Positions 5,289 to 63,763 of a DNA stretch of 64,000 bases are shown in pieces; positions within the stretch are counted from its first letter, which is position 1; every line of letters begins with the position of its first letter. The DNA lies in assembly GCA_020435335.1 (NCBI GenBank), contig JAGQZT010000107.1:4715-68714 (forward strand), in the 5' to 3' direction. The translations under genes and the position numbers were made by a program. This stretch comes from Flavobacteriales bacterium. Its GTDB lineage: Bacteria > Bacteroidota > Bacteroidia > Flavobacteriales_E > Vicingaceae. The notes below the pieces were generated by a model. It saw only the letters and a list, made by a program, of their open reading frames with translations, ran no database searches and was not told the origin of the DNA.

Positions 5289-7012
5289 TTTGCAAAGATC
5301 ATGCGTTTGGTGTCGCGGATAACATCGTCTACAACCAGACTGTAGCTGTAAATCCCAACCCGGCCATAACCATGGTCATAGATTACCTCATTCACTTCCT
5401 GGGTTAAACTGATGGGTAATGTTTCGACCAATTTACCCTGGATGTCACGAATTTCAATACAAGCTGTTTTATAAGCGGAAGGTTTTGATACTTTAACGCT
5501 AATGATCGTAGCTTCATCAAAAGGATTAGGTTTGTTTTGCAATAATTCAAACGGGTTTTGTTCTGAATTCATTTCTTCAACGCCCGTTGGAAGTACCATG
5601 ACTTCGTAGGAGAAGAGACTTTCAATGCTGTCGTTGTCAGCGGAAGCGACACTAATAAAATAAACACCGTTTTGAGGGGGGTAAATGGTGTCAGTGGTGC
5701 TACTTATCGTATACACCGAATCCCAGTCATTATCAACAGTTCGAATCCCAACCCGGTATTGGTTGTATTGTGTTTGTGTGGTGATGTTGATTGTAATACC
5801 CGGCCCATTTACCACACCGGCTGAAAAATTTGGAGTAAAAGGTCCAATGGCTGCCATTGTAGCTCCCACACCATTGATGACAGCATTTCTGCTGAGGTAA
5901 TTGAAGTCTACAAAAAAGCTGTCAATAATTAAGTCATTATTGGTATCCACTCCCAAAATATCGCTACTGGTATGTTGCCTGTCGGTATAACCAACACCGT
6001 TTGAAGCATCGCCGTGTTCGTTGGCCGATGTAAAACGCATGGCCGGGAATCCTTTTTGCCTGAAAGGGATATGATCTCCCCCACGTCCGGTCCGATCTTC
6101 AGCCGACATGATGGAAAGGAGCATGGGAACAGCAACCTGTGCAACTAACTCCTCTTTATATTGTAGTTTGATGAAACGAGCAAGCTGTTTGTTTGACGAA
6201 TTAAATCCGCCATAAGAGAACAGGCGAACCTGAAGGCTGTCTACATCGCCATACCCGGGGCAAGATGGGGGAGAAGACGTTTGTCCGCAGTAAATTCCTC
6301 CGATCACATCGTTATTCAGCACGGCTTTAATAGGAATACTATTGTCAACCGCATATTGGGCGAAGGCATTGGCACCATAGAGTCCCTGTTCTTCACCTAT
6401 CGTGGCCATAAAAACAATGGTGTTTTTATAGGTATACCTGCTCATCACCCGGGCGAGTTCCAGGACCAATGCTGTTCCTGAGCCGTTGTCTTCCATACCT
6501 TCTGCCAAACACAGGCTGTCGCAGACATCGCTACACCGGCTGTCAATGTGCCCTTCTATAATGATCACTTCGTGATTTACACTATCGGTCCCCGGTAAAA
6601 CAGCCAGGATGTTCTTGTGTTGGTTTACATTGCAGATTTGCTGATCAAATTGCAAATAGGATACTACAAGGCGGTTTTCATTCTCCGCACTGATCTGTTG
6701 AAAGCGTTGATGAACCCATTTCCTTGCTGCACCGATTCCGGTAACAAGTGACGTTGTATCCGATCCGGTGTTTCTGTTTTGAAAAGTAGCTAAATGGAAA
6801 AGATAGGCCTTCAGCGAATCGGGATTTACCCGCAGATTAATCCCTTTTGTGATGCTGTCGTGATGATTAATGACATTACTTGCAGCATAATTCGCAGGAT
6901 TGTAATTTCCTTTTAGAACCTCTCCGGCAACCGGATTGGTGGTGAAAATATTGGATTGGGTAAAACTCAATAAGGAAATAAGTAAAAATGGAAATAAGGC
7001 TAAATATTTCAT
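5285..7012 (-). CDS. M28 family aminopeptidase with T9SS C-terminal sorting domain
   Basis: Signal peptide present. M28 metal-ligand blocks are IIIEGHIDS, EDNGSGTALVLELAR and GEEQGLYGA. The C-terminal ~80 aa (KPNPFDEATIISV...IYSYSLVVDD...MIFAN) look like a Por/T9SS CTD. Confidence 0.85.
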   Translation of the reverse strand: MKYLALFPFLLISLLSFTQSNIFTTNPVAGEVLKGNYNPANYAASNVINHHDSITKGINLRVNPDSLKAYLFHLATFQNRNTGSDTTSLVTGIGAARKWVHQRFQQISAENENRLVVSYLQFDQQICNVNQHKNILAVLPGTDSVNHEVIIIEGHIDSRCSDVCDSLCLAEGMEDNGSGTALVLELARVMSRYTYKNTIVFMATIGEEQGLYGANAFAQYAVDNSIPIKAVLNNDVIGGIYCGQTSSPPSCPGYGDVDSLQVRLFSYGGFNSSNKQLARFIKLQYKEELVAQVAVPMLLSIMSAEDRTGRGGDHIPFRQKGFPAMRFTSANEHGDASNGVGYTDRQHTSSDILGVDTNNDLIIDSFFVDFNYLSRNAVINGVGATMAAIGPFTPNFSAGVVNGPGITINITTQTQYNQYRVGIRTVDNDWDSVYTISSTTDTIYPPQNGVYFISVASADNDSIESLFSYEVMVLPTGVEEMNSEQNPFELLQNKPNPFDEATIISVKVSKPSAYKTACIEIRDIQGKLVETLPISLTQEVNEVIYDHGYGRVGIYSYSLVVDDVIRDTKRMIFAN

Positions 7013-57769: not shown

Positions 57770-58450
57770 TTAGTACTTCAAAATTAAGATGGGTGTTCCT
57801 TCGTCGATCAGGTCGTAGAGTTCGATCACGTCTTTGTTTTTCATGCGGATGCAGCCATGCGATGCCGGTTTGCCGATAAAGCCCTCTTCCGGCGTACCAT
57901 GAATATAAATGTAGCGGTTGTATGAATCGATGTTCCGCCCCCGGTTGATGCCCGGCTCCTCGCCCTGAAGCCACATGATGCGGGTGGTGACATAATCTTT
58001 TGGGGCGTTTTCTTGTCCGGTCAGGATCTTGGCTGTCTTGCCATAATAAACCCGGGATTCAAAGATGCCTCCCAGGGGCACATCATCACCGATCTTGTGC
58101 CGGATGGTATGTAGTCCGGGCGGTGTTTTCAAACTGTTTTGTTTGTTACCGATGCCTTTTTTTGCCGTCGAAATGGGATATTTTCGGATGGTTGAATCGT
58201 TTTCGATGAGGTAGAGCCTTTGGTGTTTTACCGACACGTACATGTATTTGTCGAACGAGCGGTCTTTATACTTCAGCTTGAGGTATTCCGACAGGAAGTT
58301 GGCGATGGTTTCATTTTTGGGTTCTTCTTTGGGTGTTTCGATCACTTCCGGGACTTCTACTACAGGCTCAACGACCTTGGTGGTCTTGCAGGATGAAGCC
58401 AGCAAAACGGTAGCGGCGGAGCAGTAGATCATAAAGGGTCGGATCGTCAT
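57770..58450 (-). CDS. L,D-transpeptidase (YkuD) family lipoprotein
   Basis: Lipobox LASSC and active-site block IHGTPEEGFIGKPASHGCIRM. Confidence 0.85.
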   Translation of the reverse strand: MTIRPFMIYCSAATVLLASSCKTTKVVEPVVEVPEVIETPKEEPKNETIANFLSEYLKLKYKDRSFDKYMYVSVKHQRLYLIENDSTIRKYPISTAKKGIGNKQNSLKTPPGLHTIRHKIGDDVPLGGIFESRVYYGKTAKILTGQENAPKDYVTTRIMWLQGEEPGINRGRNIDSYNRYIYIHGTPEEGFIGKPASHGCIRMKNKDVIELYDLIDEGTPILILKY

Positions 58451-59256
58451 CGGTTCTGCATCTTTTTCTCGTTCATGTTAAACATGATGTTGTAAAACAG
58501 TTTCGGGAAAAAGGTTTTGAAAGGAATACTGAGGAGCTCTTTTTTGCCTATGTATTTGTGTGTGCGGTTAGACCGAAGGGCAGCAACATACTTGCGGGCA
58601 AAAGCAGCGGTTTCCATCCCGTTTTCCTGTGCCGGACTGTTCTTGTTGAAGGTGCTTCCGTCGGGAGTAACGGCATTGAGCGTAACCCGGGTATTGATGA
58701 AGCCCGGAGCCACCAACAGAATCCGGATGTTGTCTTTTCTGACTTCCAGGCGGAACGAATCATAAAATCCGTAGAGTGCGTGTTTCGATGCCGCATAGGT
58801 TGATAAGCCGGGAAGCCCGAATTTACCAATGATGCTGGTTGTAACGGCAATTTTACCACCACCCTGTTGTTTCATTATCCGGGCAACGGCTTTCGATAAA
58901 GCCACATTCCCGAAATAATTGATGTTCATGATCTTGGCTTCTACAGCGGCATTGGTGTCGAGTGCCAGTCCTTCCTGACTGATTCCGCCGTTGTTAACGA
59001 GAATGTCGATCCGCCCGAATTTAGCGACAACCTGGTTGGTCCAGTTTTCAGCCTGATCGGGATGTTCGAGGTCTATGGCCAGTATCATCACGTTTTCGGG
59101 GTTCAGTTGGGTTGCTTTTGCTACCCGTTCCAATTCCCCCGTTTTTCTGCCTGAGAGTACTAACCGGCAACCATGCTTGGCCAGCTCATAAGCAATGGCT
59201 TCGCCTATTCCCGAAGAGGCACCGGTAATCCAGGCTATTTTGTTTTGTAAATCCAC
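58447..59256 (-). CDS. SDR family oxidoreductase
   Basis: Contains TGASSGIG, NNGG and YAASK motifs. Starts with GTG and overlaps the L,D-transpeptidase gene by 4 nt. Confidence 0.9.
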   Translation of the reverse strand: MDLQNKIAWITGASSGIGEAIAYELAKHGCRLVLSGRKTGELERVAKATQLNPENVMILAIDLEHPDQAENWTNQVVAKFGRIDILVNNGGISQEGLALDTNAAVEAKIMNINYFGNVALSKAVARIMKQQGGGKIAVTTSIIGKFGLPGLSTYAASKHALYGFYDSFRLEVRKDNIRILLVAPGFINTRVTLNAVTPDGSTFNKNSPAQENGMETAAFARKYVAALRSNRTHKYIGKKELLSIPFKTFFPKLFYNIMFNMNEKKMQNR

Positions 59257-59388
59257 AGCACGAATTTAGTCATAGTGCTTTTCGTTTTTTGTTAAAAGAA
59301 GTTAACTTTTTAACGCTCTGTTCTTTAAAACCTCGAAATGAACAGGTATTAAAAAAATAATTTATTTTCCCACAACTAAGCAAGTCTT

Positions 59389-59712
59389 ATGGAACAATTA
59401 AAAACAAAAGAAAAAGTCCTTAAAGAAGGCACTCAGCTGATAACATCCTTTAATAGCTTTTGCGGCACTTATAAAGATTTCATTAAAGGTGTTGCTATAT
59501 TCAAAAGAAAATCCATATTCGGAGTGAATGTTTTAACTTCTACTAACCTTAGTCAGGAAGGGGAAAACCACCGACGAAACATCGCCAGCGATTTTAACAG
59601 GTTTAATTCTAAATATTCTGAACTAATAGATGGATTTTTCATAGACAAAACAAATAAAGGTTTTGAAATAGTTATAGTATATTGTGCTGAAAGGTTATAC
59701 AACCTCATATGA
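59389..59712 (+). CDS. Hypothetical 107-aa protein (island gene)
   Basis: ORF in the low-GC island. I recognise no family. Its 3' end overlaps the convergent 70-aa ORF by 18 nt. Confidence 0.4.
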   Translation: MEQLKTKEKVLKEGTQLITSFNSFCGTYKDFIKGVAIFKRKSIFGVNVLTSTNLSQEGENHRRNIASDFNRFNSKYSELIDGFFIDKTNKGFEIVIVYCAERLYNLI

Positions 59713-59907
59713 ACTGTTGAACATTTCAATTTCACAATTTATAGACTCCACAATCAAATTATCCACTGTTCGTTGTAAAGACACATGAACCTCATCACCA
59801 ACATTAGATACTAAAATAATATTATAAATTTGCTGAGGGTACATGTTCTTTCGCCTAGCCTGTTTCCCTTGTAAATTGATGTATTTGTCTAATTTTTTCT
59901 TATCCAT
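59695..59907 (-). CDS. Hypothetical 70-aa protein, coupled to the ATPase-methyltransferase gene
   Basis: Its ATG lies 3 nt after the TAA of the upstream 641-aa gene (TAA GAT ATG). I recognise no motif. Confidence 0.45.
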   Translation of the reverse strand: MDKKKLDKYINLQGKQARRKNMYPQQIYNIILVSNVGDEVHVSLQRTVDNLIVESINCEIEMFNSSYEVV

Positions 59908-59910
59908 ATC

Positions 59911-61836
59911 TTATCTTATTTCTGATAAACATAATTCAGCATTAGCATACTGCTGAACCCAAAAACCATGTTGCTTACCGTTTTTGTAATTTTTCTCTTT
60001 ACTTCTGATTTCTTTGATTTTTCTTTGGGCTTTATCCTTAATTGAATTTAGAGCTTTTACTTTATTATCGTGAGAAATTCTAGTCAAACATTGAGTGGGA
60101 ATTAGATGTGTTTTTAATCTACCTTCTCCTCTTGGATCACTTACTTCGAAACCTAAGTCCTCCTCCTTAACATTAAACAATTCCTTTAATTCGGGAGTAT
60201 CTAACACTAAAAATCCATTTTGATAAGCTTTTTCACCTGTAGGTATAAGATGATCTTCCACCAGTATTAGAAACCCGTCATCCGAAAGAATTTTATTAAT
60301 GAATCCACCTGATTTAAAAAGAGTCAACCAATCCTTAGGGTCTATTTCATGTAACACATTACACATGATAATCGCCTGAAATGATTTTTGATCATACTTG
60401 GCTAACAAATCATCTTCTGAATTAAAATACCTATCTAAGCTATCACCGTAAGCAGAAGCTATAGCATTCTCACATTTTTCTTTATCCTTATTATCAGGAT
60501 CAAACGCAATATAATCTAGTTGCTTTATTAACTTGTCGTGATTGGAAACATCCTGTTCGTTTAAGTTTGAAATAATCCTACCCTTACCCGCCCCAAAATC
60601 TAATACCCTGATCTTATCATTTTGAGATATATCTAGCAAGCTCTGTCTAATTTGGAGAGATTGAGGATCGGACGAACCTGTTTCCACCGTAGGAGGAGAA
60701 AAAAGACATTCAAATGCATATCTAGTAGACGCAAATTGAGATGGAAGACTGATGAAGTCCCTTAATTTGTCAATTTGCTCCTCATCTCCCAACAAACTAT
60801 GTAGCACCTTTTCTGGAATTTTACCCGCATGTTTTATGTTACCATTTTCAACAAACCAGATCATAGATGGATCAAAGTGTGAAAGTATCGGAATAGAATG
60901 TGTTGAAATCCAAATTTGTCCATCTTTTACTACATCTCTAATGGCATCAATCATTTCAATAACAGCCTGTGGGTGAAGATGGTTTTCTGGCTCATCCATA
61001 AACAATATCATTTCATCAAGTTGGACACCCTGACTATACAAGGCAACGCAAAACTGTAATAAAACATTCTGACCAGCGGATAATCTTGCTAGTCCTAACG
61101 GGAAATCAAATAGCGTTGCATCTCCTTCGATCGTTCTTCCTATTTCTGTTTTGAGAAAAGTTTTAATTAAACTGTTTAACTCATCAAATTCCCTTATCGC
61201 TCTATTTTTAACCTCATCTTCTTGTGTTGATTCTGGATGGGTTGCTTCCCACTTTAAATTTTGTAGTTGTTGAATTTTTGATAATGAGCTTGCTGCTAGA
61301 TTAGATATACCAATGTTTTGAGTTGCAGTTGCGTGCTGGTTAATCATGTTTTTCGTAAGATTAGTTGGATCCGTCAACTTTGCATTTAAAGGGACAAATT
61401 TTACTATTTGATAACGATCCCCTAGCTCATACGTCACAATTTTGTTCCAATTAATGTGAGCTTTATTATCTATAATTTCTTGCTGATGATATTTTATATC
61501 TTTCTCCCCCTCCTTTATTAATGTATTATAATATGCAACCTCATTATGAAGATTATCTTTTCTGGTTAATCTCTTCTTATAGCTAGTAATTGTTTTTGTA
61601 AGATTATCTATTGCTGTTTTAGATACTTTTATTTCTTTTTCACAATTTAATACATTTTGTTTTTTGGGTTTATGTTTAATAGTTGAAGATATCTTGTCTA
61701 ATATCCTAGATTTTCCACTACCGTTTTTGCCTGCTAATAGGACTACTTGCTGTAATCTATCCATTTTTATCTCTCCCAATCCATCTTCGGTTGCAGGATT
61801 TGTGTTTTTCAGAATATTAACTGATTTTATTCTCAT
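59911..61836 (-). CDS. AAA_21/ABC-type ATPase fused to a class I SAM-dependent methyltransferase domain
   Basis: Walker A GKNGSGKS (aa 36-43), a coiled-coil insert, signature-like LSAGQ (aa 252-256), Walker B/D-loop ILFMDEPENHLHP (aa 277-289) and H-loop STHS. The MTase part has motif I VLDFGAGKG (aa 411-419), then YIAFD, IIMCNVLHEI and GFLILVED. Confidence 0.8.
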   Translation of the reverse strand: MRIKSVNILKNTNPATEDGLGEIKMDRLQQVVLLAGKNGSGKSRILDKISSTIKHKPKKQNVLNCEKEIKVSKTAIDNLTKTITSYKKRLTRKDNLHNEVAYYNTLIKEGEKDIKYHQQEIIDNKAHINWNKIVTYELGDRYQIVKFVPLNAKLTDPTNLTKNMINQHATATQNIGISNLAASSLSKIQQLQNLKWEATHPESTQEDEVKNRAIREFDELNSLIKTFLKTEIGRTIEGDATLFDFPLGLARLSAGQNVLLQFCVALYSQGVQLDEMILFMDEPENHLHPQAVIEMIDAIRDVVKDGQIWISTHSIPILSHFDPSMIWFVENGNIKHAGKIPEKVLHSLLGDEEQIDKLRDFISLPSQFASTRYAFECLFSPPTVETGSSDPQSLQIRQSLLDISQNDKIRVLDFGAGKGRIISNLNEQDVSNHDKLIKQLDYIAFDPDNKDKEKCENAIASAYGDSLDRYFNSEDDLLAKYDQKSFQAIIMCNVLHEIDPKDWLTLFKSGGFINKILSDDGFLILVEDHLIPTGEKAYQNGFLVLDTPELKELFNVKEEDLGFEVSDPRGEGRLKTHLIPTQCLTRISHDNKVKALNSIKDKAQRKIKEIRSKEKNYKNGKQHGFWVQQYANAELCLSEIR

Positions 61837-61875
61837 GACTTAGTAATTAAAAAAACCAATGTACTAAAAACGAAG

Positions 61876-61883
61876 TATATTTG
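61876..61883 (+). promoter_or_regulatory. -7 promoter box TATATTTG for the SIR2-like gene
   Basis: TAnnTTTG match 17 nt upstream of ATG 61900, inside the 63-bp divergent intergenic region. Confidence 0.5.
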
Positions 61884-61899
61884 ATGAAAACCATCGAAA

Positions 61900-62913
61900 A
61901 TGGCAAACATCACATACTATATTGGAGCAGGCGCAAGTTGTAATTCTCTTCCTCTAGCAAAGGATATGCATCAAAGATTAATTGAATTCAAAGAGTATAT
62001 TATTTACTTAATTGATGAGAAAGGACTGAATAATCATTTTTCCAATTCTTACTTAACGGAACTTGATAAAATAATTCGACTTGTGTTTGAAAATGGAACC
62101 ATTGACACCTGTGCTAGGACAATGTACCTAAATGGAAGACAATCAATGGATTTAGTAAGGTTAAAGTCAATATTAAGTGGATATATCTTGTTTGAACAAA
62201 CAAGAAAAGACGAAGGATTTTTAACGAATAAAGACTCTGGGAAACAAGATCACCACAATAGAGTGATCGATCAAAGATATCCTGCGTTTATTACAAATCA
62301 AATTGATGGAAATTCAAGAAAACTGAAAGATAATATTAAAATCATATCTTGGAATTATGATTCCCAGTTCGAGCTATCTTATTCCAATGTTGTAGGTTGT
62401 CCCATTGATATGGCTCTCAATCAACTCAACGTATATCCTTCTCCATATACAAATACTGATGAAAATTATAGCATCATTAAGTTGAATGGAACAGCAGGAC
62501 TGACAGATGAACACAACAGAGTTTCGGCTGAATACTTAAGCATACTCGAATTTGATCCACTATCATCCATGAATTTCATTATCGATCTTCTTAAATCAAA
62601 TAACCAGAGAAATTACGTACCAAATCAATTGTTTTTTGCTTGGGAAGATTATCACATCCCAAAGAATTCGAAAGAATTAGCAAAAAAGATTATTTCGGAA
62701 ACAGATATTCTTATCGCAATAGGCTATTCATTTCCAGATTATAACCTTGAAGTGGATAGGTATATTTTTGATGGAAATAGGATTGAAAAAATGTATTATC
62801 AAGTTCCACCCCAATATTTTGAGGATTTAAAGCTAAATATTGCCAAAGTAAATAGTGATTTGTTACAAGTGTGCGAAAATATTTCCAGACCCGAGTTTTT
62901 AATACTGAGTTAA
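61900..62913 (+). CDS. SIR2-like / AbiH-like (DHS-like NAD-binding fold) protein
   Basis: Motifs are YIGAGASCNSLPL (GAGxS), IISWNYD (TNYD-like, N152), IIKLNGT at the position of the KLHG catalytic His (N196), and ILIAIGYSFPDYNLEVDRYIF (the GYS..D motif). Confidence 0.6.
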   Translation: MANITYYIGAGASCNSLPLAKDMHQRLIEFKEYIIYLIDEKGLNNHFSNSYLTELDKIIRLVFENGTIDTCARTMYLNGRQSMDLVRLKSILSGYILFEQTRKDEGFLTNKDSGKQDHHNRVIDQRYPAFITNQIDGNSRKLKDNIKIISWNYDSQFELSYSNVVGCPIDMALNQLNVYPSPYTNTDENYSIIKLNGTAGLTDEHNRVSAEYLSILEFDPLSSMNFIIDLLKSNNQRNYVPNQLFFAWEDYHIPKNSKELAKKIISETDILIAIGYSFPDYNLEVDRYIFDGNRIEKMYYQVPPQYFEDLKLNIAKVNSDLLQVCENISRPEFLILS

Positions 62914-62926
62914 CTGTGTTTATAAA

Positions 62927-63145
62927 TCATTTAATATCGATCAATTCCACCAAACTAACCTCTAAACATTTCGCAAGTTTTCTCAGCATGTTAATGGAAC
63001 TATTTACCCTCCCACTTTCAATCCGTCTCAATGATGAATCATCGATCTTCATCCTGTAGGCTAATTCGGATTGGGTTAGCTTTTTCTTCTGCCTAACCTC
63101 TTTTATTCTCTTCCCTAGTTTTTGTAGGTATTCCTCATCCTTCAT
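62927..63145 (-). CDS. XRE-family helix-turn-helix transcriptional regulator
   Basis: 72 aa with KKLTQSELAYRMKIDDSSLRRIESGRVNSSINMLRKLAKCL, a classic Cro/CI HTH. Confidence 0.85.
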   Translation of the reverse strand: MKDEEYLQKLGKRIKEVRQKKKLTQSELAYRMKIDDSSLRRIESGRVNSSINMLRKLAKCLEVSLVELIDIK

Positions 63146-63176
63146 TCCCTAAAAGTGAAACTTATTTCAAAAAAAT

Positions 63177-63198
63177 AACAGGGCATATATGCTCTGTT
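63177..63198. promoter_or_regulatory. 22-bp near-perfect palindrome, candidate XRE operator
   Basis: aacagGgcatatatgcTctgtt, with one mismatched pair. Lies in the divergent region between the XRE gene and the lipoprotein gene. Confidence 0.45.
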
Positions 63199-63244
63199 AG
63201 GTAAAATTTAATACCTTAGCAGGGAATCAATAAAAACTAAAAAA

Positions 63245-63763
63245 ATGAAATCACTTCGAACCTTATCGATGCTTGTAATACTCGCAAGCATATTAGTAAC
63301 TGGATGTAAAAAAGAAGAGTATCAACCAAAAGGTGATTATCAACCCGCGGGAAATTATGTTACTTCTGGAACAAACAACAATACAGTCAAGAACTATGAC
63401 ATAACCGTTAACACTTGGGAATGGACATTTGACAACACGTACCAAAGACATTATTACAGGTACGGAGTGGCTGCGCACTACAACTCACTAGTAGTATGTT
63501 ATGTGATTTCTGGAAGCGGAAAACAAATCATGCCATACTATGAAGGTGTTTCGCAGCAGGGCTATGATTTCGCAAACAACCTATTCCAAACATGGCAGTA
63601 TATTGAGTTACAATACACGAACTACAATTCTCCTAGTAGCGCGCCAAGTAGTGCCAGATATTTTTACATCGTAGTTGTTCCTCCATCTGCCAGAGAAGCG
63701 CATCCCAACTTGGATTATTCCGACTTAAATCAAGTTAAAAGTACATTTAACCTGAAGGACTAG
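63245..63763 (+). CDS. Hypothetical lipoprotein
   Basis: Signal peptide with lipobox LVTGC. I recognise no family. Confidence 0.55.
   Translation: MKSLRTLSMLVILASILVTGCKKEEYQPKGDYQPAGNYVTSGTNNNTVKNYDITVNTWEWTFDNTYQRHYYRYGVAAHYNSLVVCYVISGSGKQIMPYYEGVSQQGYDFANNLFQTWQYIELQYTNYNSPSSAPSSARYFYIVVVPPSAREAHPNLDYSDLNQVKSTFNLKD

Follow-up and report, generated by a model that had tools for sequence, protein, structure and literature searches.

A Widespread Fusion of an ABC ATPase with a Class I SAM Methyltransferase as a Candidate Single-Polypeptide Conflict System

An Intact ATPase–Methyltransferase Fusion Gene

A 64,000-nucleotide stretch of the genome of a Flavobacteriales bacterium (GenBank assembly GCA_020435335.1, contig JAGQZT010000107.1, positions 4,715 to 68,714; hereafter, the window) carries on its reverse strand an intact gene (59911..61836, −) that encodes, from an ATG start, a 641-residue protein composed of an ATP-binding cassette (ABC) ATPase and a class I S-adenosylmethionine (SAM)-dependent methyltransferase (MTase). 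We interpret this protein as a self-contained, horizontally mobile conflict system made of one polypeptide, most likely anti-phage, in which the MTase would serve as the effector. This reading, for which we regard the case as evenly balanced, would place it among the defense-type ABC ATPases, but with an effector of a new class; to our knowledge, such ATPases (PtuA, AriA, GajA, OLD, and AbiL) are so far known only to control nucleases. The coordinates and length of the gene, which had been proposed in a first-pass annotation of this DNA, match the list of open reading frames (ORFs) exactly, and its completeness is further supported by Pfam, by at least 120 full-length homologues, and by 80 related loci.

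Conservation was evaluated on an alignment of the query and 68 species-level homologues, each 26–53% identical to the query, and fractions of 69 given below refer to these 69 sequences. A full-length AlphaFold2 (AF2) model was built using 34 homologues and gave a mean predicted local distance difference test score (pLDDT) of 82. The model consists of an ABC nucleotide-binding domain, a coiled-coil hairpin, a helical subdomain, a linker of low confidence, and a Rossmann-fold MTase. The exact 641-residue protein is not recorded in a collection of 15 billion proteins, where the top match is only 56% identical; perhaps the deposited record flags the gene or leaves it without annotation.

The ATPase Half

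The ATPase domain occupies residues 1–345 (60802..61836, −). In keeping with the families considered at first pass, it scored above the Pfam gathering thresholds of both AAA_15 (49.9 bits, cutoff 32.1, residues 29–314) and AAA_21 (48.3 bits, cutoff 27), with weak additional matches to ABC_tran and SMC_N. The motifs that define the ABC superfamily follow one another in the expected order within this segment, namely Walker A (GKNGSGKS, residues 36–43), the signature (LSAGQ, 252–256), Walker B with the D-loop (277–288, opening with ILFMDEPE at 277–284), and the H-loop (312–314) with H313. The earlier claim that the N-terminal ~345 residues hold all the ABC catalytic motifs is borne out by their conservation, which ranges from 67 to 69 of the 69 sequences: G36, N38, G39, G41, and K42 of Walker A are kept in 68; S253 and G255 of the signature in 69 and Q256 in 67; D281-E282-P283-E284 and H288 of the Walker B/D-loop, as well as T312-H313 of the H-loop, in all. 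A candidate Q-loop glutamine, Q192, is kept in 40/69.

When the full model was compared with known structures using Foldseek, the top neighbors were PtuA (from Septu and the retrons Ec83 and Ec78) and AriA (from PARIS), with E-values of 3e-8 to 5e-5. The same two proteins were found by searching the PDB with a family sequence profile (PtuA-Ec83, 1.9e-6; AriA, 6.6e-5). Among the PADLOC models, the best for the fusion protein was AbiLi (2.6e-19), followed by AriA (1.2e-17), HEC-01A, PtuA, and mad3. The top NCBIfam match was the MADS ATPase MAD3 (NF047739), whose 46.4 bits lie far under the cutoff of 420, and PtuA (NF041760) scored 22.1 bits against a cutoff of 500. Judged by these sequence scores, the ATPase is a family-level member of none of AbiLi, AriA, HEC-01A, PtuA, and mad3. 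It is a member of the defense-associated AAA_15/AAA_21 group, of which PtuA and AriA are the nearest solved relatives.

The Methyltransferase Half

The remainder of the protein, residues 396–641 (59914..60651, −), forms a family-specific class I SAM MTase module, as supported by Pfam, by the AF2 model, and by fold matches in the PDB. Methyltransf_23 matched residues 397–527 with 32.8 bits for the whole protein and 35.0 bits for the C-terminal half alone, which pass the curated cutoff of 27 and assign this half to an MTase family; Methyltransf_12, _25, _31, and _11 scored under their cutoffs. The motifs quoted at first pass (VLDFGAGKG, YIAFD, IIMCNVLHEI, and GFLILVED) are present and conserved in the family, and they were delimited here as VLDFGAGKGR (residues 411–420), YIAFD (442–446), CNVLHEIDP (492–500), and GFLILVED (521–528). 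Among the SAM-binding residues, D413 is kept in 66/69 and G415, G417, R420, and the acidic end of β2 (D/E446) in 69/69. The N-V-L-H-E motif following β4 is similarly retained (N493, 67/69; V494, 69/69; H496, 68/69; E497, 69/69), as are further residues of a substrate- or catalytic-site type (W503, E527, G534, E535, and G541, 69/69; D528, 65/69). Such near-invariance of the active-site residues in the ATPase and MTase halves alike suggests, at the level of sequence, that both enzymes are active.

An AF2 model of residues 385–641 alone reached a pLDDT of 90.6 and a predicted template modeling score of 0.89, and its strand order is that of the seven-strand Rossmann-like fold of class I enzymes. 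Besides the core motifs, the module contains a loop GEKAYQ (534–539), a strand GRLKTH (572–577), and two C-terminal helices (589–640) lying on the core. In the model, strands 564–566 and 576–580 complete the Rossmann sheet and helices 589–611 and 617–640 pack on the core, so that what had been taken for a separate tail appears to belong to the MTase domain. The ~80-residue basic helical tail described earlier does carry a charge of +8 in the query, but the model places it inside the MTase domain, and the family does not retain its basicity (median, +2). Acidity of the MTase core, on the other hand, is a conserved feature (median net charge, −10). The acidic core and the invariant Glu/His cluster are equally compatible with metal-dependent O-methylation and with a cationic substrate.

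The type of MTase was examined by motif, profile, and fold. The (D/N/S)PP(Y/F/W/H) motif of N6A/N4C DNA MTases was present in 0/69 family sequences. The PCQ/PCR motif of C5 DNA MTases was likewise present in 0/69, with ENV occurring sporadically at unrelated positions in 7/69. PADLOC models of restriction-modification (R-M) types I–III, BREX PglX, DISARM, and the MADS methylase gave no match to the C-terminal 257 residues at E ≤ 10. The lack of DNA-MTase motifs, noted originally for the single sequence, therefore holds family-wide. Foldseek comparison of the C-terminal model with the PDB gave 266 matches at E ≤ 1e-3, all of which were class I MTases, though the closest was weak (E 2.8e-6, TM 0.4–0.5). 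Most of them were natural-product and small-molecule enzymes (AprA MT2, RebM, KijD1/TcaB9, CurJ, and phosphoethanolamine methyltransferases) and tRNA enzymes (TrmK and METTL6); the sole DNA MTase among them was M.BseCI at rank 35. Against viral structures, generic MTases were again obtained, the top one (TM 0.53) being a model of a Hen1-like small-RNA 2′-O-MTase. The family sequence profile found AprA MT2 as its only MTase match in the PDB (E = 0.011), and the best PHROG match was a “tRNA methyltransferase” family (2e-5). NCBIfam, Pfam, the PDB profile search, and Foldseek of PDB and viral structures thus all returned generic class I MTases, with no specific family or substrate. These results agree with the earlier proposal that the domain resembles small-molecule, protein, or RNA MTases rather than R-M enzymes, and a non-DNA MTase is supported by the Pfam family, by the lack of DPPY and PCQ motifs, and by the lack of a PADLOC methylase match.

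Enzymes of the Hen1 type, which methylate the 2′-O of RNA 3′ ends and have Pnkp as partner, possess a metal site E-x-x-E-H after β4 together with a downstream His. At the equivalent site the fusion protein has N493-x-x-H496-E497; no Hen1 structure occurred in the top 50 PDB matches, and no Pnkp neighbor was seen.

The Coiled-Coil Hairpin and the Linker

A ~190-residue coiled-coil-like insert between Walker A and the signature had been noted at first pass. The insert is real and measures ~208 residues, but the coiled coil accounts for only ~70 of them in the AF2 model, as an antiparallel hairpin at residues 59–128 (61453..61662, −) made of helices 59–91 and 98–128; the rest is modeled as the usual helical subdomain of ABC proteins. 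The hairpin is hypervariable, exhibiting a mean pairwise identity of 13% vs. 41–50% in the catalytic cores and a length of 18–108 residues across the family. It is a candidate surface for sensing or oligomerization. Library searches with the insert and with the C-terminal tail gave no match to known domains.

The two enzymes are joined by a linker at residues 346–395 (60652..60801, −), which is 50–51 residues long throughout the family, with 43% mean pairwise identity and at least 95% conservation of L348, G350, A369, P381, D390, and Q392. Residues 352–384 have a pLDDT below 50 in the AF2 model. A segment of low confidence that nevertheless has a constant length and conserved residues is suggestive of a role in docking or regulation and not of a passive tether.

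Family Distribution and Exclusivity

A search of ~5.8 billion proteins gave 953 matches, and the best 120 of them are nearly all 606–685 residues long, 47–56% identical to the query over 95–100% of its length, and equipped with the same pair of Pfam domains. Their sources include cultured Sphingobacterium, Pedobacter, Bizionia, Emticicia, and Chryseosolibacter, and members are named “AAA family ATPase”, “predicted ATPase/SAM-dependent methyltransferase”, or “hypothetical protein” in public records. A scan using one genome per species identified a relative in at least 205 species. Eighty loci taken from species genomes (28–53% identity) are spread patchily over ~8 phyla and comprise Bacteroidota, Ignavibacteria, Balneolaceae, Verrucomicrobiota, Firmicutes, Fibrobacterota, Planctomycetota, and Alpha-, Beta-, Gamma-, and Epsilonproteobacteria. 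In one of them, from an Ignavibacteriaceae metagenome-assembled genome (MAG; locus L002, from 6001–6288), the homologue looks split, with a 95-residue N-terminal piece forming its own ORF, which may reflect a frameshift or a pseudogene.

A profile of the C-terminal module was then compared with 1.84 billion representative proteins, giving 947 matches at E ≤ 1e-3, 827 at E ≤ 1e-10, and 419 at E ≤ 1e-30. Of the 150 best-scoring matches, nearly all measure 570–680 residues and have the module at the C-terminus. Short matches of ~300 residues begin inside the end of the ATPase (“MIWYVKNGNV...”, “LDEPENYFHP...”), which identifies them as fragments. No stand-alone MTase module was found in this exhaustive representative search, and the module is known only within the fusion. 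Because it never occurs apart from the ATPase, a coupling of ATP-dependent sensing to methyl transfer in one polypeptide, as had been suggested, is a reasonable inference. The description of the fusion as unusual holds only in part: no account of the architecture was found in the full-text literature, though an earlier mention may exist in the ABC ATPase classification of Krishnan et al. (2020), but it is not rare, as it numbers 827 representative clusters and occurs in at least 205 species.

Genomic Context

De novo clustering of 817 neighboring ORFs from the 80 loci produced no cluster present in more than 4/80. The 34 small ORFs lying downstream on the same strand shared no mutual similarity even at E ≤ 1, tandem paralogues of the fusion were not found, and the neighbors seen in the window (ORFs of 70, 107, and 337 residues and a helix-turn-helix (HTH) gene) do not stand beside the fusion at related loci. 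The lack of a conserved neighbor in the 80 loci indicates that the fusion gene is a single-gene unit. The neighbor families that do recur are of a defense type, namely AAA_21/AAA_15 ATPases, TIR_2, DUF4145, OLD, GajA-like proteins, AlwI, and a PDDEXK nuclease, and an AriA/mad3-like protein was also found among the immediate neighbors.

Annotated contexts were sampled for six homologue loci. In Pedobacter hiemivivus (L081), the fusion lies in a dense defense island in the order QatB with KAP NTPase, 2CompART, UvrD-like helicase, fusion, HTH_3, and HEPN. Another dense defense island was observed in Sphingobacterium faecium (L085, 1-16157), where an RVT_1 reverse transcriptase, an unknown gene, and AbiH precede the fusion, and an insertion sequence element, UvrD with an OLD-like TOPRIM gene (Gabija-like), HD, and QueC follow it. 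This QueC gene is accompanied by a PfkB/nucleoside deoxyribosyltransferase fusion, and the two may relate to 7-deazaguanine. In Emticicia, the surroundings consist of UmuDC-like genes, many small ORFs, and an HTH_17 protein and look like a mobile element. In Chryseosolibacter (L083), the fusion is accompanied by an unknown 276-residue gene and an HTH_3 gene; this small HTH_3 gene and that of Pedobacter are not orthologous to the XRE-type regulator of the window. The remaining two contexts, from Flavobacterium sp. and a Balneolaceae chromosome, are taken up below.

In the window itself, the fusion gene belongs to a low-GC island (59260..63300, with the right end at or beyond 63300) that was delimited by composition profiles and also holds a SIR2-like gene and an XRE-type HTH gene. 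Its GC content is 0.26–0.38 vs. a window average of ~0.46, and its left edge near 59260 is sharp.

Proposed Role and Alternatives

ABC ATPases form ATP-sandwich dimers, and the same is expected of the fusion protein. Its ATPase would act as a sensor or switch, with the hypervariable hairpin as the likely surface that senses an invader cue or mediates higher-order assembly. The conserved 50-residue linker would tie it to a dedicated MTase, which would hold the place that a nuclease (PtuB, AriB, or Toprim) has in related systems. Either the nucleotide state of the ATPase or the binding of a trigger would gate the MTase, which would then methylate a non-DNA target, most likely RNA (tRNA or rRNA) and otherwise a nucleotide or protein. 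As a result, translation or replication would be halted in the infected cell or the phage.

The defense role, the gating, and the target are what we infer from the results above. The fusion is conserved with both active sites under strict purifying selection at 26–53% identity; its closest ATPase relatives are PtuA and AriA; it is patchily spread, lies in a low-GC island, and has no conserved partner. Defense islands in Pedobacter and Sphingobacterium, defense-type neighbors, and the mobile-like region of Emticicia point in the same direction, as do the hypervariable insert and the restriction of the MTase module to this ATPase. Leads toward an RNA target are the PHROG match to a tRNA methyltransferase family, TrmK and METTL6 among the fold neighbors, and the tRNA-directed effectors of related systems.

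There are also observations that weigh against a conflict system with such an effector. The immediate neighbors at the 80 loci are mostly housekeeping genes, and in two of the six sampled contexts (Flavobacterium sp. and the Balneolaceae chromosome) a lone fusion stands amid housekeeping genes. The family is absent from a phage collection and a plasmid collection, and no PADLOC defense model spans the whole fusion protein. The generic fold neighbors of the MTase single out no substrate, and its acidic core, together with a tail whose basic charge is not conserved, does not favor a nucleic-acid substrate. Furthermore, we know of no precedent for a non-DNA MTase as a defense effector, and the proposed role is drawn from sequence, structure prediction, and genomic context.

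Some of these points would suit a housekeeping or stress modification enzyme, in which an ATP-dependent clamp or chaperone delivers the MTase to a cellular RNA, protein, or metabolite. Ordinary metabolic genes as neighbors, lone insertions in two genomes (one flanked by Lon and FTHFS, the other by an SDR and an ABC-F gene), absence from the phage and plasmid collections, and biosynthetic and tRNA MTases as fold neighbors are all consistent with it. Against such an enzyme speak a highly patchy distribution over ~8 phyla lacking conserved synteny, a low-GC island here and defense islands in two other genomes, closest ATPase relatives that are all defense proteins, and a hypervariable insert typical of arms-race surfaces. 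We consider it unlikely, although it is the best of the alternatives.

DNA is a common target of ABC ATPases that carry coiled-coil inserts, and the protein could accordingly be imagined as an ATP-dependent DNA modification enzyme, such as an orphan or a MADS/R-M-like methylase with a non-canonical motif, whose SMC/RecF-like ABC part loads onto DNA for the MTase to mark. The weak SMC_N match, MAD3 as the top NCBIfam match, and the presence of M.BseCI at rank 35 accord with this idea. Against it stand the 0/69 counts for both (D/N/S)PP(Y/F/W/H) and PCQ, the lack of any R-M, BREX, DISARM, or MADS methylase match from PADLOC on the C-terminal half, a MAD3 score of 46 vs. a cutoff of 420, the lack of a conserved nuclease or specificity partner, and the acidity of the MTase core, which together render DNA modification improbable. 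Slightly less probable still is a protein in which the MTase fold is a sensor of SAM or S-adenosylhomocysteine that reports phage SAM depletion to the ATPase, the latter being effector or scaffold. The invariance of motif I and of the SAM-binding D/E446 is compatible with such a sensor, as is the lack of a separate effector domain by Pfam, but N493, H496, E497, W503, E527, D528, G534, and E535 outside the SAM pocket are equally invariant, and it is not obvious what toxic output an ABC ATPase could have on its own. An assembly chimera or a mis-joined ORF is negligible and was rejected, since nothing was found in its favor other than that the exact protein happens not to be recorded, and since the same architecture occurs in at least 120 independent assemblies, complete chromosomes and cultured isolates among them, with the suspected junction (60650–60800, residues 345–395) corresponding to the linker, conserved in sequence and length and spanned by 120/120 listed homologues at 95–100% coverage.

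If the conflict-system reading is true, the type of ATPase that otherwise governs nucleases is here permanently wired to a non-DNA MTase, which would be a different chemical output of bacterial immunity; an ATP-gated “methyltransferase toxin” would add methylation to cleavage, to the depletion of NAD+, ATP, or dNTP, and to membrane disruption. The stronger proposal that this family is the first immune effector to methylate a non-DNA target (tRNA, rRNA, a nucleotide, or a protein of the translation machinery or of the phage) is tentative and rather doubtful, and the same applies to its nucleotide variant, in which the product might be, for example, a ribose-O-methylated chain terminator. The system is compact, a single gene of ~1.9 kb, and easy to test, with K42, E282, H313, D413, E497, E527, and E535 as key residues. 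An RNA or nucleotide target might allow the protein to be developed into a methylation tool gated by ATP or by a trigger. Should the protein have no part in immunity, what has been delineated is still a family of more than 800 clusters, known to public annotation at present only as “AAA family ATPase”.

Neighboring Genes in the Low-GC Island

The island begins right after an SDR gene at 58447–59256, and its right end was not clearly reached before the window ends. No tRNA was found in the window, no integrase was seen, and no meaningful repeats flank the island. An Rfam scan of the island gave no retron-like noncoding RNA or other structured RNA, and a promoter and terminator scan was uninformative, Bacteroidota promoters being outside its models.

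Divergent from the fusion across a 63-bp gap is a gene for a 337-residue protein (61900–62913, +), whose sequence matches that of KDD41_11115 from a Flavobacteriales MAG exactly and reads YYIGAGAS at its N-terminus. Unlike the fusion protein of the same MAG, it is recorded in the 15-billion-protein collection. Its family (~340–360 residues, 110 matches) is almost wholly without annotation; a SIR2 relationship is indicated by the name of one member (“SIR2-like domain-containing protein”) and by the SIR2_2 Pfam match of one. This SIR2-like gene does not accompany the fusion at other loci and may be a separate single-gene defense candidate. It is followed by a gene for a 72-residue XRE-type HTH_3 regulator (62927–63145, −) with PADLOC matches to HTH_VI and capH-like models. 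A 24-nt near-perfect palindrome, TAACAGGGCATATATGCTCTGTTA (63176–63199), lies ~30 nt upstream of the start of this gene and may be its operator. On the other side, a 70-residue ORF (59695–59907, −) starts 4 nt past the stop codon of the fusion and could be translationally coupled to it, but homologues of it were found neither in any library nor at the 80 related loci, and it may thus not be a real gene.

Comparison with Known Systems

PtuA, the sensor/regulator subunit of Septu and of type I-A retrons (Ec78/Eco7 and Ec83), resembles the fusion protein in being an AAA_15/AAA_21-type ABC ATPase with a helical insert, as reflected in the Foldseek (3e-8 to 2e-5) and profile (1.9e-6) matches. At the sequence level, only the Walker B/H-loop segment is similar. 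In its own systems PtuA is paired with PtuB, an HNH nuclease encoded separately, and in retrons also with a reverse transcriptase and multicopy single-stranded DNA, whereas the fusion has no conserved partner of this kind at the 80 loci and carries an MTase as its C-terminal domain. AriA of PARIS is likewise a defense ABC ATPase (PADLOC, 1.2e-17; PDB profile, 6.6e-5; Foldseek, 4.8e-5). The PARIS effector is a DUF4435/TOPRIM nuclease that cleaves tRNA, in place of which the fusion possesses a SAM MTase; neither DUF4435 nor Toprim was detected in the fusion by Pfam or as a conserved neighbor. Fused single-protein forms of AriA-AriB exist (PMC9122126), so that a sensor and effector laid out in one polypeptide has a precedent. 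PARIS and retron-Eco7, the closest solved ATPase relatives, are reported to control tRNA-targeting effectors (PMC10802454, PMC12673091). By analogy, this tRNA damage may be taken as a lead to an RNA target, not as evidence for one.

The AbiLi ATPase of AbiL gave the best PADLOC match (2.6e-19), which covers the ATPase core only, and the fusion has no AbiLii partner. For MADS, neither the MAD3 score (46.4 vs. 420) nor the surroundings, which lack a conserved operon, indicate membership. OLD and Gabija GajA are similar to the fusion in combining an ABC ATPase and an effector in one chain, but their C-terminal domain is a Toprim nuclease, whereas the C-terminal half of the fusion matches Methyltransf_23 and not Toprim. 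With MTases of the Methyltransf_23/12 type (AprA MT2, RebM, the CurJ C-methyltransferase, TrmK, METTL6, and Hen1-like enzymes), this half shares the Rossmann fold, GxGxG, the acidic β2, and “NVLHE”; it differs from the generic enzymes in its own invariant residues E527, D528, G534-E535, R573, H577, and N632 and in a C-terminal extension of two helices. An arrangement of parts like that of the fusion is seen in PrrC and RloC, which function in phage defense as one polypeptide with an N-terminal ABC-type NTPase regulating a C-terminal RNA-targeting effector; this effector is an anticodon nuclease, unlike the MTase of the fusion.

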